This document shows, one piece after another, positions 8,970-23,449 of a stretch of 64,000 bases of DNA. Source of the stretch: an uncultured virus (IMG/VR IMGVR_UViG_3300032829_000007) (taxonomy: Duplodnaviria > Heunggongvirae > Uroviricota > Caudoviricetes). The DNA lies in IMG/VR virus record IMGVR_UViG_3300032829_000007. One strand, given 5' to 3'. Positions within the stretch are counted from its first letter, which is position 1. Every line of letters starts with the position of its first letter. Position numbers and translations under genes: made by a program. The notes under the pieces were generated by a model, which worked only from the letters and a program-made list of their open reading frames with translations, searched no databases and had not been told where the DNA came from.

Positions 8970-9188
8970 ATGATAAACATTGATAAATTTAATGAAATAA
9001 TTAATGGATGGAAAAATCTTATAATAAAAGATGATTCTATCGAAGAAATAGCTAAAAAAAGAATTGAAATTTGTGTTGATTGCGAACATTTAACAAAAAG
9101 AGATATATGTGATATTTGTGGATGTTATATGCCAGCTAAAGTAAGATCCATAAAATCTAAATGTAGCGATAAACCTAGTAAATGGTAA
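8970..9188 (+). CDS. Small Cys-rich protein
   Basis: CxxC..CxxCGC..C pattern. Confidence 0.6.
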   Translation: MINIDKFNEIINGWKNLIIKDDSIEEIAKKRIEICVDCEHLTKRDICDICGCYMPAKVRSIKSKCSDKPSKW

Positions 9189-9455
9189 TTATAAATGAAA
9201 TCTTATGTTTTTCAAAGTTGTGATTCTAAAGAATGTTTAAAAATTGAAAAAGAAAAAATAGGTGCAAAAAATATTGATATAATTTCAAGATTACATTATT
9301 TTGATGAAGAAAAAAATCAAAATGTTTGTATAACTTGTGGAAAAAGAACTAATATAATTAATAATATAAAAAAAGATATTTAATTTATACGGTTTAGGAC
9401 CGTTATAGTTTCGGCTATAAACCATTAAGAATTCGCTACTCTTAATGGTTTTTTA

Positions 9456-10154
9456 TTATTCTCCATATTTTTCATAAAACTTAATCCAATTCTTGATTGT
9501 TTTACCTGTAACACCATATTTTCTTCCTGTTGCAGAATAACCGATTTCTTTAATATTATTAATTAAAATTTCATATGATGGACGTTTAAAAATTCTTTTA
9601 TTTTTCATTGAAGTAATTAATACATTAGGATCATTAACATTATCAATATATTTTATTTTTTTATGTTTTTTTTTATTGTTTTTATTTTGTATATTTTTAC
9701 CACAATGTGTTGGTAATGTTGCATTACAATTAGGGCATAATATTTGTAAATTTTCTAATCTATTATCTGTATGATTGCCATTTTTATGATCTAAAATTAA
9801 TGACATATATTTTCCATACCATTCTTCATTTTGGCCACATAATTCACATTCTTTATTTTTTAATCCAGAGTTATATAATCTTTTTTTTAAACAACCCATA
9901 TTAGAATATGTTGAATTTATTGTTAATATTTCATTTAAATTTCGTATAATTTTATTACTTTGTATTGGATTTTTTTTATTATTAATTAATATAAAATTTA
10001 AATCAACATTAAGAATTTTAGCATATCTTTTTAATGTTCTAAAATTACCTGATGTTGTTTTTCTTTCTAATTTTCTTAAAATATCAGTTAATGAATTTGA
10101 TTCATTAACTAATTTTTGTAATTCATCCTTACTAATATTTTCAAATTTAATCAT
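9456..10154 (-). CDS. HNH homing endonuclease with C-terminal HTH
   Basis: CELCG..LDHKNGNHTDNRLENLQILCPNCN; C-terminal SATGRKYGVTGKTIKNW. Confidence 0.85.
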   Translation of the reverse strand: MIKFENISKDELQKLVNESNSLTDILRKLERKTTSGNFRTLKRYAKILNVDLNFILINNKKNPIQSNKIIRNLNEILTINSTYSNMGCLKKRLYNSGLKNKECELCGQNEEWYGKYMSLILDHKNGNHTDNRLENLQILCPNCNATLPTHCGKNIQNKNNKKKHKKIKYIDNVNDPNVLITSMKNKRIFKRPSYEILINNIKEIGYSATGRKYGVTGKTIKNWIKFYEKYGE

Positions 10155-10287
10155 AATTTTTAATTTATTATAAATACTTAAATAATTTTTTAAGGAATAG
10201 TTAAATGGTTAAAAATAATAAATTAAATAATGAAAAACATTAGTTTAACAAATTACTATACTATAATTTTATAATCTATTTATATAG

Positions 10288-10359
10288 AGCCTCTTACTTG
10301 AATTGAACAAGTATCTTCTCGTTACAAAGGAGAAATAATAACCATTATACTAAAGAGGC
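10288..10359 (-). tRNA. tRNA-Thr(TGT)
   Basis: GCCTCTT/AAGAGGC acceptor stem, loop TT-TGT-AA, TTCAA T loop. Confidence 0.8.
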
Positions 10360-10362
10360 ATG

Positions 10363-10433
10363 TGACTTCACTTGGAGTTGAACCAAGCTCACCATTTTAA
10401 AAGAGTGGGGCATAACCGCTTTGCTATGAAGTC
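10363..10433 (-). tRNA. tRNA-Lys(TTT)
   Basis: GACTTCA/TGAAGTC acceptor stem, loop CT-TTT-AA. Confidence 0.8.
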
Positions 10434-10439
10434 ATTTAG

Positions 10440-10513
10440 AGCAGGTAATCGGGATCAAACCGACTCTATTCCAGCTTGGAAGGCTGGTGCACCATCAATT
10501 ATGCGTTACCTGC
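10440..10513 (-). tRNA. tRNA-Gly(TCC)
   Basis: CCAGC-CT-TCC-AA-GCTGG anticodon arm, U73. Confidence 0.85.
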
Positions 10514-10520
10514 ATTTATT

Positions 10521-11321
10521 TTAATTATTTATATTATATTTTTTATTCCATTTATAAATTTTTAATAATAATTCATCAAGTGTTAATGAGCATCTATAAT
10601 TTTTTTTAACATTATCATTATGTAACATTAAACTACAATTAGCAGGATGTTTTATTATTTTAGGATCTATATTATTTTTAAAACCATAATTAATTGAAAT
10701 CATATGATCTCTACTTACACCATTTAAATTATCTCCATAATTTTTTGCTTTATACCAATCATATTTTTCAATTAAATTAATTTCAAATTCATTAGGATAA
10801 TCAGATATTCTAAAATCAAATTGGCAATCTTTATAATATTTTTGATATGAAGTTTTAATTTTTTTATAATACATATTTTTACAATCCATTGAACAAAATT
10901 TATTAATTCTTTTTTTAAAAATAAGATATTTTCCACATTCCTTACATGATTTAGGATTTTTTATATATTCTGAATAAGTGTCGCATATTTTTAATCTTTT
11001 ATATAATGCTTCTCTCATATTTTTTTTACCTTTTTCACTAAATATTTTTTTAAATTTACCTTTTTTATTTTTATTATTAAAAGAAGCTGAACAACTTTTT
11101 GAACAAAATATTTTTCTACAATCTCCTTTAATAATTTTTCCACATTTTTTGCAATATTTAATATTTGCTTTCTTATTATTTTGTGAACAATTAATAGAAC
11201 AAAAATGTTTTCTACCTTTTTTTTCACTTCTATTAAATTCACTACTAGTTTTATTAAATTGTTTATTACAATATGCACAAGTAACTGAGATTAATTTTCT
11301 ACCATCTTTCCAATTTTTCAT
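10521..11321 (-). CDS. Zn-finger-repeat, HNH-like homing endonuclease
   Basis: Repeated CxxC..FCSxxC modules; C-terminal SRDHMIS..HPANC..HNDNVKK. Confidence 0.7.
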   Translation of the reverse strand: MKNWKDGRKLISVTCAYCNKQFNKTSSEFNRSEKKGRKHFCSINCSQNNKKANIKYCKKCGKIIKGDCRKIFCSKSCSASFNNKNKKGKFKKIFSEKGKKNMREALYKRLKICDTYSEYIKNPKSCKECGKYLIFKKRINKFCSMDCKNMYYKKIKTSYQKYYKDCQFDFRISDYPNEFEINLIEKYDWYKAKNYGDNLNGVSRDHMISINYGFKNNIDPKIIKHPANCSLMLHNDNVKKNYRCSLTLDELLLKIYKWNKKYNINN

Positions 11322-11403
11322 AAATATTTTTTTAATATAAATACTATAAAATATAAAAAGTGGAACAAATGTAATTTGAATTCAAAGAACATTATAAAAA
11401 TTG

Positions 11404-11479
11404 CGGATTATATGGAATTCGAATCCATCTGATTATACTCCGTGACAGGGAGATAGCCACCCTAGCAGCCCCGTAGACC
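11404..11479 (-). tRNA. tRNA-Asp(GTC), imperfect acceptor stem
   Basis: CTCC-CT-GTC-AC-GGAG arm, TTCGAAT T loop, G73. Confidence 0.7.
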
Positions 11480-11487
11480 AATTTTTG

Positions 11488-11558
11488 CATAAGTAGCTGG
11501 AGTTGAACCAACAAATCACAGTTTTGGAGACTGCTTATCACACCACATGAGTACCTAT
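11488..11558 (-). tRNA. tRNA-Trp(CCA)
   Basis: GCAGT-CT-CCA-AA-ACTGT arm; short D arm. Confidence 0.75.
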
Positions 11559-11565
11559 ATTTTAG

Positions 11566-11637
11566 TGCAGCCGGAAGGACTTGAACCTTCACCCCATTGG
11601 TTAAAAGCCAATTGCTCTACATTGGAGCTACGACTGC
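11566..11637 (-). tRNA. tRNA-Lys(TTT)
   Basis: Canonical cloverleaf, TTGG-CT-TTT-AA-CCAA. Confidence 0.9.
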
Positions 11638-11646
11638 ATATTTTAG

Positions 11647-11720
11647 TGAACCTATTAGGACTCAAACCTAAATCTAAGGACTTAGAAGATCCTTGTATTA
11701 TTCAATTATACTATAGGTCC
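11647..11720 (-). tRNA. tRNA-Arg(TCT)
   Basis: AGGAT-CT-TCT-AA-GTCCT arm. Confidence 0.8.
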
Positions 11721-11725
11721 ATTTG

Positions 11726-11799
11726 CGGGATAGCAAGTAATCGAAACTTGATCAAGTGCTTAACAGGCAGTAGCTATATACCACTTAAGCTTTTTTCCC
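11726..11799 (-). tRNA. tRNA-Asn(GTT), imperfect stems
   Basis: TGC-CT-GTT-AA-GCA arm, TTCGA T loop, G73. Confidence 0.7.
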
Positions 11800-11808
11800 T
11801 AATATTTG

Positions 11809-11879
11809 TAGACCTAGATTTACTCGAAAAATCATCTTCGGTATGTAAAACCGTTGCTCTGCCTTTAAGCTATAGATCC
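11809..11879 (-). tRNA. tRNA-Val(TAC)
   Basis: CGGT-TT-TAC-AT-ACCG arm. Confidence 0.8.
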
Positions 11880-11891
11880 AATTATATTTTG

Positions 11892-11960
11892 TTGCGAGTG
11901 AGAGTAACGATCTCTCCTGATAAGTTTATGGGGCTTATTGGTTCACCTGAACTACTCGCA
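11892..11960 (-). tRNA. tRNA-Met(CAT), reduced D arm (Ile2 or fMet identity not excluded)
   Basis: TGCGAGT/ACTCGCA acceptor stem, loop CC-CAT-AA. Confidence 0.65.
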
Positions 11961-11967
11961 ATATTAG

Positions 11968-12040
11968 TAGGCATTTCAGAATTTGAATCTGAATTTCTTG
12001 AGTATCAGTCAAGGGTACTAACCAGTTATACTAAATGCCT
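11968..12040 (-). tRNA. tRNA-Ile(GAT)
   Basis: CTTGA-CT-GAT-AC-TCAAG arm. Confidence 0.85.
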
Positions 12041-12042
12041 AT

Positions 12043-12074
12043 AAAATAAAAAACCATCATTTTTGATGAGGGTT
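12043..12074 (-). terminator. Attenuator terminator in front of the 11-tRNA operon
   Basis: AACCCTCAT-CAAAA-ATGATGGTT followed by TTTTATTTT. Confidence 0.7.
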
Positions 12075-12100
12075 CTAATAAATCTTATTTAAATATTAAA

Positions 12101-12187
12101 TTAAGAATATAGTTTTCCCTCATGGTAAAATCCTCTTGTTTTATCACCATTATTAATCGCTACCATATTCCAATTTTTTGTTTGCAT
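12101..12187 (-). CDS. Leader peptide MQTKNWNMVAINNGDKTRGFYHEGKLYS (putative tRNA-sensing attenuator)
   Basis: 28-codon ORF between promoter and terminator; codons match the downstream tRNA anticodons; ATGAGGG is complementary to the terminator 5' arm. Confidence 0.75.
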   Translation of the reverse strand: MQTKNWNMVAINNGDKTRGFYHEGKLYS

Positions 12188-12236
12188 TTTTTAAAATTTA
12201 AATTCGATAATCTACAATAGTAGAAAATTTTCGATA

Positions 12237-12268
12237 CAAAGATAATTATAATTTTTTAATTATCCAAA
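12237..12268 (-). promoter_or_regulatory. Bacteroidota primary-sigma type promoter
   Basis: TTTG-N20-TATCTTTG matches the -33 TTTG / -7 TAnnTTTG consensus. Confidence 0.75.
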
Positions 12269-12450
12269 TAATTTTTAAACTATTTTTATATAAATACGTA
12301 AAATTTTATAAAAGGTTACGTATTTTATTATATTTTATAAAAGATATTTATAAGCTGAAGATCTATCAGATTCAACTTCTTCTTTTGTTAAAATTTTAAA
12401 AACTATTTTTTTATTATTTTTTATTTTTTTCATTATTAAAATATTATTAG

Positions 12451-12523
12451 AGGGAATAACAAGATTCAAACTTGCAACCTTTTCGTTCGTAGCGAAATGC
12501 TCTATTCATTGAGCTATATTCCC
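12451..12523 (-). tRNA. tRNA-Arg(ACG)
   Basis: TTTCG-CT-ACG-AA-CGAAA arm, GGGAATA/TATTCCC acceptor stem. Confidence 0.85.
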
Positions 12524-12534
12524 ATGATATTCAA

Positions 12535-13299
12535 TTAATTAAATGCTTCTTCTAATGAAAACAATAATTTTTGCAAATTTGCTTTATAAAATCCCGCACA
12601 ATTAATACAACCACATTCAATTATTTTATATTCATTATTTGTTAAACAAATATCCATAACAAAAGCATTATTTAATTGAAATAATTTTATCATTTCATTA
12701 CAATAATTATATACTGAAATATCAATATTATCATTTAATAATAATCTATTACCTAATTTATATTGACTAGCAGTAATAATTTCTCCTTTAACAATCCAAA
12801 ATCTAAATTCTTGTTGAATATTTTTTATTGTAGAAATTTGAATTTCAGTATTATTATCTAATATTGTTGAATGACCATTTGTTAAAGAATAATTTTTAAA
12901 TTTATTCCATTCATTCATATCAAATTCTCGTCCTGTAAATACTTTTGTATCTTTAGTAGGTCTAGCAAAAAATCTTTCCTTTTGAAAAAAATCATCACCA
13001 AATTTAATAATTTTAGAATCATAATTTAAAAGATTTTCTTTATAATATTCTTTATAAACTAAAAAATCATGATTTTCATTCATTTGTGAACCTGGTTTCC
13101 AACCATATTGGTTAGAAATTCTAGCCATTTTTAATGATCCAAAAGGAAAAATATCTTTTCTTTTAGTTTTAAATTTAATTGTTTCAATAAATGGAAGAAC
13201 TTTAACAATTTCATATTTAAATTTCATTTTATCTAATGCAATTATTAAATTGTTATAATTTTCTTCTCTAAAAACATTTTCTTGTACTATATAATACAT
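12535..13299 (-). CDS. ATP-grasp domain protein (DUF4343/R2K-like)
   Basis: FFARPTKDTKVFTG, EFRFWIVKGEIITASQY, FVMDIC..KIIECGCINCAGFY motifs. Confidence 0.75.
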   Translation of the reverse strand: MYYIVQENVFREENYNNLIIALDKMKFKYEIVKVLPFIETIKFKTKRKDIFPFGSLKMARISNQYGWKPGSQMNENHDFLVYKEYYKENLLNYDSKIIKFGDDFFQKERFFARPTKDTKVFTGREFDMNEWNKFKNYSLTNGHSTILDNNTEIQISTIKNIQQEFRFWIVKGEIITASQYKLGNRLLLNDNIDISVYNYCNEMIKLFQLNNAFVMDICLTNNEYKIIECGCINCAGFYKANLQKLLFSLEEAFN

Positions 13300-13328
13300 A
13301 ATATATAATTATTAAATTTAATATTTTG

Positions 13329-13411
13329 TTATTCCGGTAGGACTCGAACCTACAAGCCTTGCGGCATCTGCTTCAAAGACAGACATGTTTAGCCAATTCC
13401 ATCACGGAACA
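13329..13411 (-). tRNA. Class II (long variable arm) tRNA with TTG (Gln) anticodon
   Basis: TCTGT-CT-TTG-AA-GCAGA arm, GCC-GCAA-GGC variable hairpin, Leu-like D arm, U1-A72, A73. Confidence 0.8.
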
Positions 13412-13421
13412 ATATTATTAG

Positions 13422-13493
13422 TACTGCGTAGGAGGATCGAACTCCTGATAACAACATTGAAGGTGTTGTGGCTTACCACTTGCCGAACGCAGC
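13422..13493 (-). tRNA. tRNA-Glu(TTC), C33 variant
   Basis: CAACA-CC-TTC-AA-TGTTG arm, TTCGAT T loop. Confidence 0.75.
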
Positions 13494-13562
13494 ATTTTTA
13501 TATTTTAGGGTGTTAGGTGGAACTTGAAAATAAAAATTCAAGTATTTATAATAAATTTATTT

Positions 13563-14231
13563 ATGATCCCTCTTTTTGATATATCAAAAATTAATGAATA
13601 TAAATATAATAAAAAATTATCATTTCAATGTGAATATTGTGGAAATACTTTTACAGTAAAAAAAGATCAAGTAATGAAAGCCTTAAATAATCATTTAAGA
13701 ATTAAAATAAAATATTGTTCAAATAAATGTAGACTTAAAAGTAATGATAAAACTATTCAAATTAATTGTACACAATGTAAAAAATTATTTAAAAAACAAC
13801 ATCATAGAATTAGAAAAAATAATTTTTGTTCACAATCATGTGCAGCTATATATAATAATACACATAAAATAAAAGGTTATCATAGATCTAAACTTGAAAT
13901 TTATCTTGAAAATGAATTAATTAAATTATATCCTTTTTTAGAAATAAAATTTAATGAAAAAGAAATGATTAATTCAGAATTAGATATTTATTTTCCATTA
14001 TTTAAACTTGCAATTGAATTAAATGGTATATTTCATTATGAACCAATATTTGGTAAAAATAGATTAAATCAAATAAAAAATAATGATCAACGTAAATTTC
14101 AAGCTTGTTTAGAACAAGGAATTGAACTTTGTATTATAGATACATCACAACAAAAATATTTCAAAGAACAAACATCTAAAATTTATTTAGATATTATAAA
14201 AAATATTATAAATAAAAATTTAAATTTATAA
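13563..14231 (+). CDS. Zn-finger plus PD-(D/E)XK (Vsr/DUF559-like) endonuclease
   Basis: CxxC..(Y/F)CSxxC modules; SKLE..ELDIYFP..LAIELNGIFHY; ATG 13563 preferred because AGTATTTATA lies at 13541-13550. Confidence 0.75.
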   Translation: MIPLFDISKINEYKYNKKLSFQCEYCGNTFTVKKDQVMKALNNHLRIKIKYCSNKCRLKSNDKTIQINCTQCKKLFKKQHHRIRKNNFCSQSCAAIYNNTHKIKGYHRSKLEIYLENELIKLYPFLEIKFNEKEMINSELDIYFPLFKLAIELNGIFHYEPIFGKNRLNQIKNNDQRKFQACLEQGIELCIIDTSQQKYFKEQTSKIYLDIIKNIINKNLNL

Positions 14232-14241
14232 AATTAATTTG

Positions 14242-14313
14242 GGTGTAAGAATGGTATTGATCCATTTTCTCTTGATTCACAGTCAAGCGCATCACTTTAA
14301 TGCTTCAAACACC
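14242..14313 (-). tRNA. tRNA-His(GTG)
   Basis: CTTGA-CT-GTG-AA-TCAAG arm, G-1:C73; two acceptor mismatches. Confidence 0.75.
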
Positions 14314-14323
14314 ATATAACTAG

Positions 14324-14395
14324 TTCTCAGAGATGGAATCGAACCACCATTACGAAGATATAAGCTTCGCTTCCTGACCCTTAGAAGATCTGAGA
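14324..14395 (-). tRNA. tRNA-Ile(TAT)
   Basis: CGAAG-CT-TAT-AT-CTTCG arm, perfect TCTCAGA/TCTGAGA stem, A73. Confidence 0.85.
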
Positions 14396-14478
14396 ATAAA
14401 TAAATATATTATTAAACATTTAGTCAATTTTTAAATTGTGCAGTAATCACCTCGTGCAGGTAGTTTAATTTGATTACT

Positions 14479-14553
14479 TCAGGGTGACTGGATTCGAACC
14501 AGCGGACCGATGCTTCCAAGGCATCGTAGTATAGCCATCTGCAATACACCCTG
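14479..14553 (-). tRNA. tRNA-Pro(TGG)
   Basis: CAGGGTG/CACCCTG acceptor stem, GATGC-CT-TGG-AA-GCATC. Confidence 0.9.
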
Positions 14554-14558
14554 TTATA

Positions 14559-14595
14559 AAAATAAAAAAACCTTCTGAAAATTTTCCAGAAGGTT
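14559..14595 (-). terminator. Attenuator terminator in front of the 6-tRNA operon
   Basis: AACCTTCTG-GAAAATTTT-CAGAAGGTT followed by a T tract. Confidence 0.8.
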
Positions 14596-14626
14596 TATAT
14601 TGTTTTATTATAAAATATTTTATTTT

Positions 14627-14704
14627 TTAAACAACAATAGAATTCCTTCCGGCAAATTTTGCTGGTTGTTCAGGGCGTTCTATGTGTTGAAAAAACATTT
14701 TCAT
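14627..14704 (-). CDS. Leader peptide MKMFFQHIERPEQPAKFAGRNSIVV (putative tRNA-sensing attenuator)
   Basis: 25-codon ORF; codons 6-14 CAA CAC ATA GAA CGC CCT GAA CAA CCA match the six downstream tRNAs; CCGGAAGG pairs with the terminator arm CCTTCTGG. Confidence 0.8.
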   Translation of the reverse strand: MKMFFQHIERPEQPAKFAGRNSIVV

Positions 14705-14728
14705 TTCTTTTATTATTAAATTCAGATG

Positions 14729-14760
14729 CAAATATAAATATAATTTTTTAAATTTGCAAA
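14729..14760 (-). promoter_or_regulatory. Bacteroidota primary-sigma type promoter
   Basis: TTTG-N20-TATATTTG. Confidence 0.75.
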
Positions 14761-15423
14761 TATTTTTTAATCTTTTTTCATAAATAGTTAAAAATATTTT
14801 TTTATTATAAATATATTTGTTTATTTAAATATTATTTTGTAATTTTGCTGAATTAAATATTTCATGATATGAAAAAAGAAGTAAAAGAATTATATACATA
14901 TAATAAAGATTTATTACAATATAATAGAGTTGTTAATTTAATAACATTAATTGAAGAACAAGATAATGAAATTCAAGAATTAAATTATCAAAATTTTGAA
15001 TTAAAACAACAATTAAAAAATTCAAAAGAAAAAATTTGTATTGAATTTATAAAAGAATTATTATTTTCATGTGAAAAAGAAATTGAGCATATTAATAATG
15101 ATTATAAAGAAATTGAAAAAAGAGATTTACCAACAGTTATGAAAAATTTAATAAATTATATTAATGAATTTATTAAGGATAATAAAATTAAATAAAATTT
15201 ATTATGATAAAAATATATAATAATGTTGAAGATTTACCAAATGAAGAAACATTAAAAGAAAATTTTCGTATATTTTTATATTATTATAAAAAATTCATTT
15301 ATGGAGATTATATTCCAAATAATGAAGAATTGAAAAAAATATCTAAAATTTTATCTAAATTAGATAATTTATTATTAATGATGAAAGATGTTTATGATAA
15401 ACATTAAAATTAAATAATTATAT

Positions 15424-16329
15424 ATGAATATTTTTGATGCAACATTAAAAATAAAAAAATTTAAATATAAAGATTTAAGTTTTTTAAGATTAAATAATGA
15501 AATGATGTTATCAAGTTCATTATTATCATTATTATATTCAAGAAAAAAAATAAATAATTTAAATGATTTTTTTAATAAAACTAAATTTATTGGTTTAACT
15601 AAAGGAATTCATAATTTAGAAAATGAAAAAATTGTTAGTATTCGATATTTAAATGATAATATATTAAATTTAAATGATTTTATAGAAAATTCGCCAAATG
15701 AAATAAATACAAAAGAATATTGGAATTTTTTACATAAAGAATTTAAATATTGTGATGTTATGACATATCCTATTGAAGCAAATTTAAAAAATTATTTTGC
15801 TACAAAACAACCATTATATGAATCAATAATTAATAAATTTGATAATAAATTAAAATTTTTTGAAAATAAAAAAATATTAGAAATTGGTCCTGGATATGGA
15901 ATTTTACCTAAATTATTAAAAGAAAATAATATAAAATCTGATTATTATTGTGCTGATATTGTTAAAAGATTTAAACATAAAAATTTCATAGATATTGATG
16001 GATATTCATTATTAAAATATATAAATCAAAATTTTGATATTATATTCATGTCAGATGTTTTCCAACATTTAGGTATAGATATTATTAATACTTATTTTAC
16101 TGAATTTAAAAAATTATTAAATATAGATGGTTCTTTAATATTTACAACACCAACATTAAGTAAAAATGATTTATTAAACACTGCATTTTTTGCACAAACA
16201 TATATATTACCAAGTGAAAATTTATTTCATAAATTATTAAATAGTTTAAATTTTAATTTTATTAAAGAAAATATTTTTTCTAAAAATTATAAATGGGCTG
16301 AATTTTATATTGTAAAAAATAATATTTAG
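15424..16329 (+). CDS. Class I SAM-dependent methyltransferase
   Basis: ILEIGPGYG motif I, CADI motif II, FDIIFMSDVFQHL, LLNIDGSLIF. Confidence 0.8.
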   Translation: MNIFDATLKIKKFKYKDLSFLRLNNEMMLSSSLLSLLYSRKKINNLNDFFNKTKFIGLTKGIHNLENEKIVSIRYLNDNILNLNDFIENSPNEINTKEYWNFLHKEFKYCDVMTYPIEANLKNYFATKQPLYESIINKFDNKLKFFENKKILEIGPGYGILPKLLKENNIKSDYYCADIVKRFKHKNFIDIDGYSLLKYINQNFDIIFMSDVFQHLGIDIINTYFTEFKKLLNIDGSLIFTTPTLSKNDLLNTAFFAQTYILPSENLFHKLLNSLNFNFIKENIFSKNYKWAEFYIVKNNI

Positions 16330-18967: not shown

Positions 18968-21900
18968 ATGGCTTTAGAAAAAAATGATTTTATTAAGTAT
19001 TCTTATGATGAAGTTTATAATGCAACATTAAATTATTTTAACAATGATATATTAGCAACAGATGTATGGATTAAAAAATATTGTTTAAAAGATTCTGAAG
19101 GAAATTTATATGAAAAAACACCTGATGATATGCATAAAAGAATTGCTAAAGAATTAGCAAGAATTGAATTAAAATATCCAAATGCATTAAATGAAAATAA
19201 AATTTATGAAACATTAAAAAATTTTAATAGAATAGTACCACAAGGATCTCCAATGAGTGGAATAGGTAATAACTTTCAAATTATAAGTTTAGGCAATTGT
19301 TTTGTTACCGGTAATGAAAAAGATTCAGATTCTTATGGCGGAATTATGAGAATTGATCAAAATATTGCGCAGTTAGAAAAAAGAAGAGGTGGTGTTGGAG
19401 TTGATCTAAGTTTTATAAGACCAAATAATTCACCAGTAAAAAATAGTTCATTAACATCAACAGGCATTGTTCCTTTTATGGAAAGATACTCAAATACTAC
19501 AAAAGAGGTTGGACAAGGTAATCGGCGCGGAGCTTTAATGCTATCATTATCAGTTAAACATCCAGATGCGGAAAATTTTATTGATGCAAAATTAGAACAG
19601 GGTAAAGTTACTGGTGCTAATATATCAATTAAGGTAGATGATGAATTTATGAATTGTGTTATTAATAATAAAGAATATATTCAACAATATCCAATAGATA
19701 GTAATAATCCAAAATATATAAAAAATTTAAATGCTAATAAATTTTGGAAAAAATTAATGCATAATGCTTGGAAATGTCTTCCATATAATACATATATTAA
19801 TATATTATATAATAATAATCCATTAAAAATAAAAATTGGAGAACTTTATGAAAATAAAGAAAAATATAAAAATTCTAAAATTTTATCAATAAATCTTTCT
19901 AATTTAAAATTAGAAAATAAAGAAATTATTGATTTTCAAAAATATAAAAATAATAAAAAAATTATATCATTAAAAACAAAAAATAATAATTTTGTTAGTT
20001 CAACTGAAGATCATATTTTTTATATATTAAAAAATGAAAAAATAATTGAAACAAATATTAATGATATTAATATTGGAGATTTTATATTAACATCAAAAAA
20101 AAATATTGAAAATAATTATGGCTGTGATTATATTAAATTAAATTTAGAATTTTTTGAAAAAAGAGATGGAATTTGGTTTGAAAATATACCCGTAAATTTA
20201 AAAGATGATAAAATAAAAAAAATATTAAAAAAATATAAAAATGATGAATATATATTAAATGGATATATTAGAAGAAAATTAATACCATTAAATAGTTTTA
20301 ATTTAATAAAAGATAATTTAAATATTGTTGGAGATATTTATATTAGACCAAATACCACAAATAATTCTGAAATGAATTATTCTATTAATAATTTTCATAT
20401 TGATGAAAATTTATCAAGATTTTTTGGCTTATGGCTTGCTGATGGATCATATCATGGATCAAATGTTAGAATAAGTAGTAATGAAAAAGAAATTAATGAT
20501 TATAAAAAAATTTATGATTATATATCAAAAAAATTTAAATGTAATTATTCTATTAATAAAGAATATACTGTTGAAATTGGATCAAAATTTTTAGTTAATT
20601 TAATGAAATCTTTAGGATTTTGTTATGTTAATGGAAATAAAATTTTACCAAAATTTATTAAATCAATGAGTAATAATAATATTTCTAATTTTATTGGTGG
20701 ATTTATTGATGGTGATGGTACTGTTAGTAAAGAAGGTACAATAACAATAAATCAATCTAATTTTGAATTATTAAATGATATTAAAGAATTATTAATGTAT
20801 TTTAGCGTTTATTCATCTATATATCCTAAAATAATTAAAGAAGGTAAAATAATAAAAAATAATTATATATTATCAATACAAAAATTTGATAATAAAATTT
20901 TTATTAATGATATTAAATTATTAATAAAAAATAAATATAATAGAATAAAAACATCAAAAATAAGTGTTAAAACAGCTATTCCTATTCCTCCTATACGTAA
21001 ATTAATAGAAAATTGCAAATTTAAAAATAGAATGTATTTTTATGATGGTGGTATTAGTAAATATACGTTAAAAAAACATTTAAATTCTAAAAATATACAT
21101 AATACATTTTTAGAATCATTATGTAATGAAGATATTTATTTTGATAAAGTAATTGAAAAAAAAGAAGAAAATAATCAAGAATATGTTTATGATATTACAG
21201 TTAAAGATAATCATACTTTTGTATTATCTAATGGTATTATTCTTTCAAATAGTGCAGAACCAGGAATATTGTTTTGGGATACTATTATTAATGAATCTGT
21301 TGCAGATTGTTATTCCGATTTAGGATTTAAAACTGTATCTACAAACCCATGTCAACCGGCATGGGCTAAAATTTTAACTCCAAAAGGTATTAAAGAATTA
21401 AAAGATGTAAATATTGGAGATGAAATTTGGAGTTCTGAAGGATGGACTAAAATTATTAATAAATGGTCTACTGGTATAAAAAAAGTTTATAAATATTCAT
21501 TAGATTTTAATAAAAAAATACCTAATACTAATTTAGAATATGCATTTTATGGTACAGAAAATCATAAAATAGTTGATATTGGAAAAAAAATAGAAGTAGA
21601 TAATGCTAAAAATATTGATTGTTTTTTAAATAATGTATTCGATGATTTTAAAACTAATTTTACAGATATATTATCTATTGAACCATTAATGATAAAAAAT
21701 AAAGAATTTATTTCAGAAGAAGAAGTGTTTGATATTACTGTTGATAATAATTCTCACACATATTGGACACAAGGTTGTAATGTTTCTAATTGTGGCGAAT
21801 TACCTTTATGTATTTCTGATAGCTGTAGATTATTATTATTAAATTTATTTGGTTATGTTATAAATCCATTTACTAAAGATTCATATTTTAATTTTGATTT

Positions 21901-23449
21901 ATTTAAAAAAGATGTTTATATTGCTCAAAGATACATGGATGATATAAATGATTTAGAAATAGAAAAAATTGAATCTATTTTAAACAAAATTAAATCAGAT
22001 CCAGAAGATGAATTTATAAAATTATATGAAATTGATTTATGGGAAAAAATTAAAGAAAAATTAATTTTAGGAAGAAGAACTGGTTTAGGAATTACTGGTG
22101 AGGGTGATATGTTAGCTGCATTAGGATATAGATATGGAACTGATGAAGCAACAGATTTTTGTGTAAATGTTCATAAGATATTAAAATTAGAAGCATATCG
22201 TTCATCTGTTGATATGGCTAAAGAAAGAGGAAAATTTTCTATATATGATTCAATAAGAGAATTAAATAATCCTTTTATAAATAGAATCAAAAATGAAGAT
22301 ATTGAATTATATAATAATATGGTTAAATATGGGCGTAGAAACATTGCATTATTAACTATTGCTCCTGCTGGTAGTGTAAGTATTTGTACTCAAACAACAT
22401 CTGGTATTGAACCAGTATTTTTACCAACATATAAAAGAAGAAGAAAAATTAATCCACAAGAAAAAAATATAAGAATTGATTTTATTGATCCAGAAGGTAT
22501 TGCGTGGCAAGAATATAATGTATTTCATCATAAGTTTGAATTGTGGCTTAAAATAAATGGATATGATATTGAAAAAGTTAAATTAATGTCTAAAGAAGAA
22601 ATTGATGAAATAATTAAATTATCTCCATATTATAAAGCAACATCAAATGATTTAAATTGGGTTAAAAAAATTGAAATGCAAGGAAAAATCCAAAAACATG
22701 TAGATCACTCTATATCAGTTACTTGTAATCTTCCTTCAGATGTAAATGAAGAAATAGTTTCTAAAGTATACGAAACAGGTTGGAAATTTGGATGTAAGGG
22801 TGTAACGATTTATCGTGATGGTTCAAGAAATGGTGTGTTAGTATCTAATGATAATAAAAATGAAAAAACAAATAATAATATAAATGAAAATAATGCACCT
22901 AAACGTCCTAAAAAATTAAAAGGTGATATTATTAGATTTCAAAATAATTCTGAAAAATGGATTGGAGTTGTTGGCTTATATAAAGATAAACCATATGAAA
23001 TATTTACAGGTAAATTAGAAAATGGTTTATCTGTATTACCATCTTATGTAAAAACATGTGAAATAGTAAAAAATATAATTGAAGATGAAAATGGTAGCAA
23101 GAAAAAAAGATATGATATTGAATATATAGATTTAGAAGGAAAAAAACAAATTTCAACTGGTTTATCGCATAAATTTAATCCTGAATTTTGGAATTATGCA
23201 AAAATGATTTCAGGATTATTACGTCATGGTATGCCATTAATATCATTATATAAAACAATTGATTCATTAAATTTAGATGATACAAATTTAAATACATGGA
23301 AAGCTGGTATATTAAGAATCATAAAAAAATATATTAAGGATGGAGAAAAATTAAGTGGATATAAATGTCAAGAATGCGGAAGTGATCAACTTGAATTTAA
23401 AGAAGGATGTCTTACTTGTATGAATTGTGGAAATAGTAAATGTGGATAA
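18968..23449 (+). CDS. nrdJ: Class II (adenosylcobalamin-dependent) ribonucleotide reductase with two inteins
   Basis: NCFV, RRGA, STNP/CGE split by an intein, TIAPAGS, SGIEP, KGVTIYRDGSR, C-terminal Zn ribbon EGCLTCMNCGNSKCG; no beta subunit gene nearby. Confidence 0.9.
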   Translation: MALEKNDFIKYSYDEVYNATLNYFNNDILATDVWIKKYCLKDSEGNLYEKTPDDMHKRIAKELARIELKYPNALNENKIYETLKNFNRIVPQGSPMSGIGNNFQIISLGNCFVTGNEKDSDSYGGIMRIDQNIAQLEKRRGGVGVDLSFIRPNNSPVKNSSLTSTGIVPFMERYSNTTKEVGQGNRRGALMLSLSVKHPDAENFIDAKLEQGKVTGANISIKVDDEFMNCVINNKEYIQQYPIDSNNPKYIKNLNANKFWKKLMHNAWKCLPYNTYINILYNNNPLKIKIGELYENKEKYKNSKILSINLSNLKLENKEIIDFQKYKNNKKIISLKTKNNNFVSSTEDHIFYILKNEKIIETNINDINIGDFILTSKKNIENNYGCDYIKLNLEFFEKRDGIWFENIPVNLKDDKIKKILKKYKNDEYILNGYIRRKLIPLNSFNLIKDNLNIVGDIYIRPNTTNNSEMNYSINNFHIDENLSRFFGLWLADGSYHGSNVRISSNEKEINDYKKIYDYISKKFKCNYSINKEYTVEIGSKFLVNLMKSLGFCYVNGNKILPKFIKSMSNNNISNFIGGFIDGDGTVSKEGTITINQSNFELLNDIKELLMYFSVYSSIYPKIIKEGKIIKNNYILSIQKFDNKIFINDIKLLIKNKYNRIKTSKISVKTAIPIPPIRKLIENCKFKNRMYFYDGGISKYTLKKHLNSKNIHNTFLESLCNEDIYFDKVIEKKEENNQEYVYDITVKDNHTFVLSNGIILSNSAEPGILFWDTIINESVADCYSDLGFKTVSTNPCQPAWAKILTPKGIKELKDVNIGDEIWSSEGWTKIINKWSTGIKKVYKYSLDFNKKIPNTNLEYAFYGTENHKIVDIGKKIEVDNAKNIDCFLNNVFDDFKTNFTDILSIEPLMIKNKEFISEEEVFDITVDNNSHTYWTQGCNVSNCGELPLCISDSCRLLLLNLFGYVINPFTKDSYFNFDLFKKDVYIAQRYMDDINDLEIEKIESILNKIKSDPEDEFIKLYEIDLWEKIKEKLILGRRTGLGITGEGDMLAALGYRYGTDEATDFCVNVHKILKLEAYRSSVDMAKERGKFSIYDSIRELNNPFINRIKNEDIELYNNMVKYGRRNIALLTIAPAGSVSICTQTTSGIEPVFLPTYKRRRKINPQEKNIRIDFIDPEGIAWQEYNVFHHKFELWLKINGYDIEKVKLMSKEEIDEIIKLSPYYKATSNDLNWVKKIEMQGKIQKHVDHSISVTCNLPSDVNEEIVSKVYETGWKFGCKGVTIYRDGSRNGVLVSNDNKNEKTNNNINENNAPKRPKKLKGDIIRFQNNSEKWIGVVGLYKDKPYEIFTGKLENGLSVLPSYVKTCEIVKNIIEDENGSKKKRYDIEYIDLEGKKQISTGLSHKFNPEFWNYAKMISGLLRHGMPLISLYKTIDSLNLDDTNLNTWKAGILRIIKKYIKDGEKLSGYKCQECGSDQLEFKEGCLTCMNCGNSKCG
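19775..21250 (+). mobile_element. Intein 1 with LAGLIDADG homing endonuclease (492 aa)
   Basis: AWK|CLPYNT..STEDH..GLWLADGS..GGFIDGDG..VYDITVKDNHTF..ILSN|SAEPG. Confidence 0.9.
21350..21790 (+). mobile_element. Intein 2, mini-intein (147 aa)
   Basis: TNP|CQPAWAKILT..GTENHK..VFDITVDNNSHTY..VSN|CGE. Confidence 0.9.

Follow-up and report, generated by a model that had tools for sequence, protein, structure and literature searches.

Organization of the unit 1 leader region

The DNA analyzed here is a stretch of 64,000 nucleotides from an uncultured virus of the Caudoviricetes (IMG/VR record IMGVR_UViG_3300032829_000007), referred to below as the window, which has a G+C content of 19.8%. Its minus strand carries a group of tRNA genes, designated unit 1, that lies behind a promoter, a short open reading frame (ORF) and an intrinsic terminator. 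Judging from the sequence, from folding models and from comparison with related phages, it is highly probable that this leader region acts as a ribosome-mediated (leader-peptide) transcription attenuator controlling the phage tRNA operon.

A candidate promoter of the Bacteroidota type was recognized at 14729–14760 on the minus strand (TTTG at 14760–14757, a 20-nt spacer and TATATTTG at 14736–14729). Bacteroides promoters follow a −33/−7 consensus, and the unit 1 motif, TTTG-N20-TATATTTG, fits it. The motif ends 24 nt upstream of the leader ATG and would place the transcription start at ∼14724–14720. The same site also scored as σ70-like (TTGCAA-17-TATATT). Across a set of 23 leaders that includes unit 2 of the window (described below), the motif TTG-N19–22-TAnnTTTG was present upstream of 12, compared with 254 of 20,000 random 113-nt windows (1.3%). 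The leader ORF itself (14627–14704, minus strand) consists of 25 codons followed by TAA (ATG AAA ATG TTT TTT CAA CAC ATA GAA CGC CCT GAA CAA CCA GCA AAA TTT GCC GGA AGG AAT TCT ATT GTT GTT TAA) and specifies the peptide MKMFFQHIERPEQPAKFAGRNSIVV. No Shine-Dalgarno sequence was found at its start, the surroundings of which are A-rich, as at the other genes of the window that were read.

Codons 6–14 (CAA CAC ATA GAA CGC CCT GAA CAA CCA; 14663–14689, minus strand) are all read by the six tRNAs encoded downstream on the same strand: tRNA-Pro (TGG; 14479–14553), tRNA-Ile (TAT; 14323–14395), tRNA-His (GTG; 14242–14312), tRNA-Glu (TTC; 13421–13493), tRNA-Gln (TTG; 13328–13411) and tRNA-Arg (ACG; 12450–12523), the last of the unit. 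Five of these were detected by ARAGORN at its default setting and by Rfam; tRNA-His was detected with the Rfam tRNA model (42.2 bits) and by ARAGORN only at a relaxed threshold. The original prediction, made from the sequence alone, had quoted this run of codons and proposed that all six tRNAs are represented in it. Translation of the minus strand from 14704 to 14627 and the tRNA searches bear out both points.

Codon usage was compiled from the 38 ORFs of at least 150 amino acids (of 39 listed), which together contain 11,582 codons. Two of the codons in the run, CGC and CAC, are as rare in this genome as had been claimed, occurring once and nine times, respectively. The six unit 1 tRNAs read 19% of the genome codons, and under this usage a 24-codon ORF would contain nine or more consecutive cognate codons with a probability of ∼5 × 10⁻⁶. 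The window contains 363 ATG-initiated ORFs of 15–60 codons; the unit 1 leader is the only one with such a run and the only one in which all six tRNA species are represented within nine codons.

An intrinsic terminator (14556–14596, minus strand) follows the ORF and comprises a hairpin of 13 pairs (14596–14568, −14.2 kcal/mol) followed by TTTTTTTATTTTT, with the T tract at 14567–14556. Consistent with its predicted location just ahead of tRNA-Pro, the hairpin ends 14 nt from that gene, which leaves no space for a promoter between them. It is the sole minus-strand terminator-like site detected in 9000–16000.

Three further elements can be defined in the leader RNA. Region 1, the putative anti-antiterminator (14678–14689, minus strand; CAACACATAGAA), corresponds to codons 6–9 and pairs with TTCTATTGTTG (14642–14632) when the complete leader is folded to its minimum free energy. 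Region 2, the putative 5′ strand of the antiterminator (14632–14653, minus strand), comprises GCCGGAAGGA (14653–14644) and TATTGTT (14639–14633) and lies within the last nine codons of the ORF. Region 3 (14586–14604, minus strand), made up of AACAATA (14604–14598) and CCTTCTGG (14593–14586), is the partner of region 2 and doubles as the 5′ arm of the terminator. The antiterminator pairings proposed at the outset, CCGGAAGG with CCTTCTGG and TATTGTT with AACAATA, are real complementarities: the 5′ arm of the terminator forms a duplex with the final 45 nt of the ORF region at a calculated energy of −13.8 kcal/mol, compared with −4.1 ± 2.2 kcal/mol for the null, and of 497 segments of 45 nt drawn at random from the window only 1 performed equally well. 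In the predicted folds the 1:2, 2:3 and 3:4 layout of a trp-type attenuator is complete, with the regulatory codons inside region 1.

The effect of a translating ribosome was modeled by forcing a 30-nt footprint to be unpaired for each A-site codon and calculating the equilibrium probability of the terminator helix. This probability depends on ribosome position. It is 0.90 when the ribosome is absent and 0.84–0.90 with the A site at codons 1–3, falls to 0.01–0.49 at codons 4–8 and 10–13 (0.78 at codon 9), and is 0.92 at codons 14–25 and 0.84 at the stop codon. The interval over which the modeled terminator is lost (codons 4–13) coincides with the cognate codon run. In a control comprising 40 dinucleotide shuffles of the leader, for which even-numbered codons only were evaluated, the terminator probability remained at ≥0.87 throughout (0/40 shuffles below this value). 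A second model considered the nascent RNA, in which the 3′ arm of the terminator is not yet made. Here, sequestration of the 5′ arm was 0.68–0.72 for codons 1–13, 0.53 at codon 14 and 0.29–0.42 for codons 15–25.

The six tRNA genes lie downstream of the leader, as the original prediction held, but they are not contiguous. An HNH-like ORF on the opposite strand (13524–14231, plus strand) and a 765-nt gene for an R2K-clade ATP-grasp protein (12535–13299, minus strand; Pfam PF14243, 3e-17) stand among them. A role for the hairpin as a bidirectional terminator for the plus-strand HNH ORF was considered; this may be a side role, but it leaves unexplained the same arrangement in relatives without that ORF. 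HNH or homing-endonuclease-like ORFs are dotted over the tRNA array of the window (13524–14231, plus; 10521–11321, minus; 9456–10154, minus), and similar endonuclease insertions are found elsewhere in relatives, for example between the terminator and the first tRNA at L001:5176–5700. The ATP-grasp gene (also present at L001:6001–6765 and at 30 further loci) is located among or beside tRNA genes in many, not all, related loci, and in Brevundimonas phage Bambus its homologue lies outside any tRNA array. In the phage collection, one distantly related homologue carries the annotation “ribosomal protein S6 glutaminyl transferase.” The interval from tRNA-Arg-ACG to the unit 2 promoter contains an AT-rich hairpin (ATACGTAA ... 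TTACGTAT; 12290–12325, minus strand), which could end the operon. The acceptor stems of tRNA-His (14242–14312) and of a tRNA-Asn (11726–11799, minus strand) are mismatched and both genes are missed by ARAGORN at its default setting; these tRNAs may be weakened or unusual.

Unit 2 and the leaders of related giant phages

A second arrangement, unit 2, occupies 12051–12268 on the minus strand. Its promoter (TTTG at 12268–12265 and TATCTTTG at 12244–12237) is of the same type as that of unit 1, its leader ORF (12101–12187, minus strand) specifies the peptide MQTKNWNMVAINNGDKTRGFYHEGKLYS, and its terminator (12051–12075, minus strand) ends 10 nt before tRNA-Ile-GAT. The tRNAs that follow are Ile-GAT, Val-TAC, Asn-GTT, Arg-TCT, Lys-TTT, Trp-CCA, Asp-GTC, Gly-TCC, a further Lys-TTT and Thr-TGT. 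A stretch of 17 leader codons represents all nine of these species, and the leader is unique in this respect among the 363 short ORFs. As Lys, Asn and Ile are frequent, the run of cognate codons carries little statistical weight here (P = 0.02). An arm within the ORF (CATGAGGGA) is complementary to the terminator (−11.1 compared with −2.3 ± 1.8 kcal/mol; 1 of 497 segments equal), and the modeled probability of the terminator was 0.84 without a ribosome, ≤0.25 at codons 2–17, 0.57 at codon 18 and ≥0.83 from codon 19, except for 0.64 at codon 27. The two units of the window divide isoacceptors between them: ATA and CGC are found in the unit 1 leader together with Ile-TAT and Arg-ACG, and ATT and AGA in that of unit 2 together with Ile-GAT and Arg-TCT.

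Proteins of phage type encoded in the window include HNH and homing endonucleases, members of PHROG families 36119, 33734 and 23051, an intein-bearing ribonucleotide reductase and the R2K ATP-grasp protein. The large subunit of the reductase (18968–23449, plus strand) is split by an intein with a LAGLIDADG domain. An origin in a eukaryotic giant virus, considered in view of a AAAATTGA-like spacer motif, was ruled out by the PHROG and HNH matches, the phage relatives and the bacterial-type terminators. No phage DNA near-identical to the window was found among 50,697 phage records. The ATP-grasp protein identified as relatives contigs of uncultivated giant phages in IMG/VR, with lengths of up to 675 kb, and the top matches in the phage collection are LR756501.1/LR756503.1 (735,411 bp) and LR756500.1 (462,018 bp). 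A 735-kb phage genome is described by Al-Shayeb et al. (2020; PMC7162821), where genomes of >634 kb form the “Mahaphage” clade, with replication predicted in Bacteroidetes. The ATP-grasp proteins of metagenome contigs were at most 75% identical, and none of these contigs was near enough for alignment with the unit 1 leader. A search for leader variants in contigs of four DNA runs (80% likeness) returned only short low-complexity or tRNA-like pieces, and no RNA run containing the sequence was found. Three viral contigs with an exact 21-mer of tRNA-Pro (L003–L005) proved to be GC-richer unrelated loci that share only the T arm and were dropped.

Leaders were collected from the window, 31 ATP-grasp loci and two further stretches of one contig. 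Transfer RNA genes were located with ARAGORN, a hairpin with a T tract was sought ≤250 nt upstream of a tRNA, and the leader was taken as the longest ATG-initiated ORF ending between 70 nt before and 8 nt inside the hairpin. This procedure yielded 35 terminators, and 24 leaders were left once duplicate peptides and any units lacking an ORF or tRNAs had been dropped.

The composition of the leaders co-varies with the tRNA set downstream. A Pro/His/Gln block is preceded by MKNLVNIVPQPQQHPQILEWGNYA (..PQPQQHPQ..) in L011, with variants in L009, L038, L042 and L001, and an Asp/Glu/Val/Leu/Ala/Trp block by MKKLLDILVAVLMVDVLLWAAEEDDLCEVG (..DILVAVLMVDVLLWAAEEDD..), which occurs in six variants. The leader MRNVSKHSKSFKSFWSHRSG.. 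(..SKHSKSFKSFWSH..) stands before Lys/Phe/Ser/Trp/His tRNAs, MKNSVNILLQQLQLLQL.. (..LLQQLQLLQL..) before Gln/Leu tRNAs, and a leader with four AAA and four AAG codons before Lys-TTT and Lys-CTT. The block in L006 for Cys, Ile, Ser, Phe, Gly, Met, Asn, Thr and Arg (16 assigned tRNAs and one unassigned call) follows a leader containing ..NISSSVTISGITTRSSRSCNGMSMFNRIFTGINTGI... In the GenBank genomes, ..TPAPAVAFRRGTGTGTGTCVPAG.. (..TPAPAVAFRRGTGTGTGT..) precedes an Arg/Ala/Thr/Val/Gly/Pro block in LR756501.1, and ..SVHIIHIWEHLLEEV.. precedes His/Glu/Val/Trp/Leu and further tRNAs in LR756500.1. Relative to the Pro/His/Gln leaders, unit 1 has the extra tRNAs Ile-TAT, Glu and Arg-ACG and the extra codons ATA, GAA and CGC. 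Whole-ORF binomial p values ranged from 1.6 × 10⁻⁷ to 0.95 and were <0.05 at the amino-acid level in 19 of the 24 rows.

The match between leaders and tRNA sets was evaluated by permutation, using one representative per leader family, picked by eye, and leaving out homologous variants within a family. With 12 classes, the leader’s own tRNA set ranked first in 7 of 12 columns and none of 200,000 permutations reached the diagonal sum; with 15 classes (the 12, one false unit discussed below and the two GenBank phages), the observed match was reached in 0 of 300,000. These values bear on the possibility that the leader is a random short ORF in an AT-rich spacer beside an ordinary terminator. Short ORFs and promoter-like sites are indeed numerous in AT-rich DNA, and a scan gave 74 promoter-like sites compared with 72 expected. 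Such a coincidence would nevertheless have to produce the codon run (P ∼ 5 × 10⁻⁶), the antiterminator (1/497), the behavior that no shuffle reproduced (0/40) and the match across phages (0/300,000), and we give it practically no credence.

The RNA elements vary together with the peptides. Terminator stems differ from family to family, and the complementary 3′ arm within the ORF varies along with them (GGAATGGGGA, AGTCGGGTA, GTTCGGATTTC, ATAGATTGGGTTC and, in unit 1, GCCGGAAGGA); of the 24 non-identical units, 20 showed complementarity within the 1.3% tail of their null distribution. In an alignment of the Asp/Glu/Val/Leu/Ala/Trp leaders, the stems are nearly invariant in six of seven rows, the seventh being poorly aligned in the 3′ arm. 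The distance from terminator to tRNA is 6–67 nt in most relatives. It follows from these features that the short ORF is very unlikely to be an independent small-protein gene with its own terminator, whose peptide acts in trans while constitutive leak-through or a separate promoter accounts for tRNA expression. An ORF, a promoter and a terminator are compatible with a small gene, and N-termini of the form MKNL.NI are conserved among relatives. However, the composition of the peptide follows the downstream tRNA set and is otherwise unconserved, the terminator lies only 14 nt from tRNA-Pro in unit 1 and within the above range in most relatives, and the 3′ end of the ORF is constrained as RNA, being complementary to the terminator arm.

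The reading frame is likewise informative. The Pro/His/Gln leaders differ from one another by an in-frame indel of two codons, the cognate codons stand in one frame behind an ATG, and that frame is kept across families. If the leader were instead a translation-independent RNA element, such as a T-box-like tRNA-binding switch or a signal for processing or stability of the tRNA precursor, the frame would be incidental. The alternative hairpins do exist regardless of translation, but Rfam searches of 9000–16000 at E ≤ 1 gave no match to the T-box covariance model or to any other riboswitch family. We regard such an element as improbable, to about the same degree as a small-protein gene.

Codon choice within the leaders extends to isoacceptors. 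In L042, a short contig in which Gln-TTG tRNAs are the only Gln tRNAs, the leader uses CAA only; in L009, L011 and L038, which have Gln-CTG too, CAG appears once. The L001 leader is without CAG in the presence of Gln-CTG. These distinctions are relevant to the proposal that the attenuator is real but responds to amino-acid starvation, that is, to uncharged tRNA and not to the amount of tRNA, with the link to tRNA genes a by-product. Since stalling reflects the level of aminoacyl-tRNA, charging and abundance cannot be told apart from the sequence by itself, and the architecture is that of the amino-acid attenuators. Against this, starvation for an amino acid is not relieved by extra tRNA, the leaders track isoacceptors (ATA versus ATT, CGC versus AGA, and AAA with AAG before Lys-TTT and Lys-CTT), and they shift with the tRNA content from phage to phage. 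Starvation as the signal is thus unlikely, though it is the alternative to which we attach the most weight.

Further features were noted in the related loci. The sequence AACCTCCTTTCTTATA is conserved between the stop codon and the terminator of the Asp/Glu/Val/Leu/Ala/Trp leaders (L009–L038 alignments, columns ∼113–129), and the similar AACCTCC of L008 is the terminator arm itself. Suppressor-type tRNAs (anticodon CTA, and one TTA) occur at L006:3160–3234, L023:11799, L051 and L025:3610, and some related giant phages may recode stop codons; no suppressor-type tRNA was found in the window. At L007:3740–3868, a tRNA-Ser-GCT of contig G001 lies directly behind a promoter-like motif without a leader or terminator, from which it appears that not all tRNAs in these phages are gated.

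Proposed mechanism and points against it

The leader can be explained by the following model. Host RNA polymerase would start at the Bacteroidota-type promoter and produce a leader transcript of ∼165 nt, of which a ribosome coupled to the polymerase would translate the 25-codon ORF. When the aminoacyl-tRNAs for CAA, CAC, ATA, GAA, CGC, CCT and CCA are plentiful, the ribosome would pass codons 6–14 and enter the last 11 codons, where it would cover region 2; the terminator hairpin would then form and transcription would stop before tRNA-Pro. Slow decoding of any such codon would stall the ribosome on region 1, leaving region 2 free to pair with region 3 (CCGGAAGG:CCTTCTGG and TATTGTT:AACAATA). 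With the terminator blocked in this way, the polymerase would continue into the genes for Pro-TGG, Ile-TAT, His-GTG, Glu-TTC, Gln-TTG and Arg-ACG as a single readthrough transcript. In the absence of a ribosome, region 1 would pair with region 2 and the terminator would form.

The codons to be sensed are the ones that the operon’s own products decode, and such a circuit would therefore exert negative feedback on decoding capacity and supply tRNAs on demand. The phage thus probably makes the six unit 1 tRNAs only when ribosomes decode their codons slowly, and what is sensed in the infected cell is likely an insufficient capacity to decode exactly these codons. The capacity could fall short at an early stage, when phage tRNAs have yet to build up, or because the host tRNAs are poorly matched to the phage codons or have been lost. 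The reading of the locus as an attenuator, advanced in the original prediction, is upheld by the promoter, the codon-matched short ORF and the mutually exclusive antiterminator and terminator predicted from the sequence; its decisive support is comparative, in that leaders track tRNA sets.

Several observations weigh against this interpretation. Within unit 1, standard wobble reads eight of the nine regulatory codons; reading of CCT by Pro-TGG is assumed here, four-way reading via U34 being well established. Cognate enrichment over the whole ORF is weak (10 of 24 codons compared with 4.6 expected, p = 0.01–0.04), and given this modest value the signal lies in the codon run and its coverage of six tRNA species. 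Whole-ORF enrichment of the unit 2 leader is lower still (p = 0.14–0.28). The acceptor stem of tRNA-His contains two T·T mismatches. Given that the HNH-like ORF and the ATP-grasp gene interrupt the tRNA genes, their expression as a single transcript is something that we infer. When the stop codon occupies the A site in the nascent-RNA model, the ribosome no longer masks CCGGAAGG and sequestration of the terminator arm reaches 0.79, such that termination in the replete state would depend on the interval in which codons 15–25 are read, on re-pairing of region 1 and on kinetics.

The comparative data also contain exceptions. A significant antiterminator is absent from 4 of the 24 units (L012, L013, unit C of L006 and unit B of L008), and none is clear in the unit at L001:4941. 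In L011, unit D of L006, L035 and L023, the terminator is kept at equilibrium for every ribosome position and a switch appears only in the co-transcriptional model. The row with p = 0.95, an ORF of L032 starting MVKIKGP, is a false unit located within a tRNA gene and is without a match. Finally, the leader families are related, and the rows therefore outnumber the independent events that they represent.

Relation to known systems and significance

The trp, his, leu, thr, phe and ilvGMEDA leaders of Escherichia coli and Salmonella share with the phage leader a layout of promoter, ORF with regulatory codons, 1:2, 2:3 and 3:4 pairings, and terminator before the genes. In those systems too, stalling on the regulatory codons favors the antiterminator, as it does here in the model, and the thr and ilv leaders likewise sense several amino acids with one leader. 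The phage element differs in that it would control tRNAs and not enzymes, so that the sensed molecule is its own product, and in that the phage leaders would sense six to nine codon types at once. It is also phage-borne, has a Bacteroidota-type promoter and is without a Shine-Dalgarno sequence. When curated Rfam leader families were searched at E ≤ 1, the only match was sub-threshold, to His_leader (RF00514; 26.1 bits compared with a gathering threshold of 49, E = 0.49, 14563–14668).

Two other systems invite comparison. Expression of E. coli pheST, with its pheM leader, is set by ribosome stalling at cognate amino-acid codons and is a case of a translation-apparatus gene governed in this way. 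However, pheST encodes a synthetase and its leader senses one amino acid, whereas the phage unit would control tRNA genes. T-box elements likewise choose between terminator and antiterminator according to tRNA status; by contrast with the phage element, which is an in-frame ORF, they bind uncharged tRNA directly and without translation. A literature search, covering mostly titles and the openings of abstracts and with subscription journals and supplements outside its range, revealed no report of tRNA genes controlled by a leader peptide. In the accessible text of the huge-phage paper (PMC7162821), the strings “attenuat” and “leader” are both absent.

The presence of tRNA genes in phages is usually explained by compensation for codon usage or by escape from tRNA-cleaving defences. 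With the balance tilting only slightly in its favor, we propose that giant phages of Bacteroidota, including LR756501.1, organize their tRNA genes as independent modules, each gated by a leader peptide encoded in the codons that the tRNAs of that module decode. The modules would constitute a codon-resolved sensor of decoding capacity that replaces whichever tRNAs are short, for example after the action of anticodon-nuclease defences or host shut-off, and would be the first tRNA genes regulated by their own products through the speed of translation. Defences that cleave tRNA, and phage tRNAs as a counter-measure, form an active field, as indicated by recent reports (PMC12409363, PMC13462974); a link between the attenuator and such defence systems is speculation.

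If the model is true, the phage gauges decoding speed codon by codon and produces each block of tRNAs on demand. Textbook trp-type attenuation would then extend to tRNA genes, with the product itself being sensed, and the leaders would serve as a readable record of the codons that a phage anticipates will be limiting in the host. They may also be a source of parts for synthetic tRNA-responsive switches. The recurrence of this arrangement in many uncultivated giant phages, including one with a 735-kb genome, raises the possibility that it could be a general design principle.

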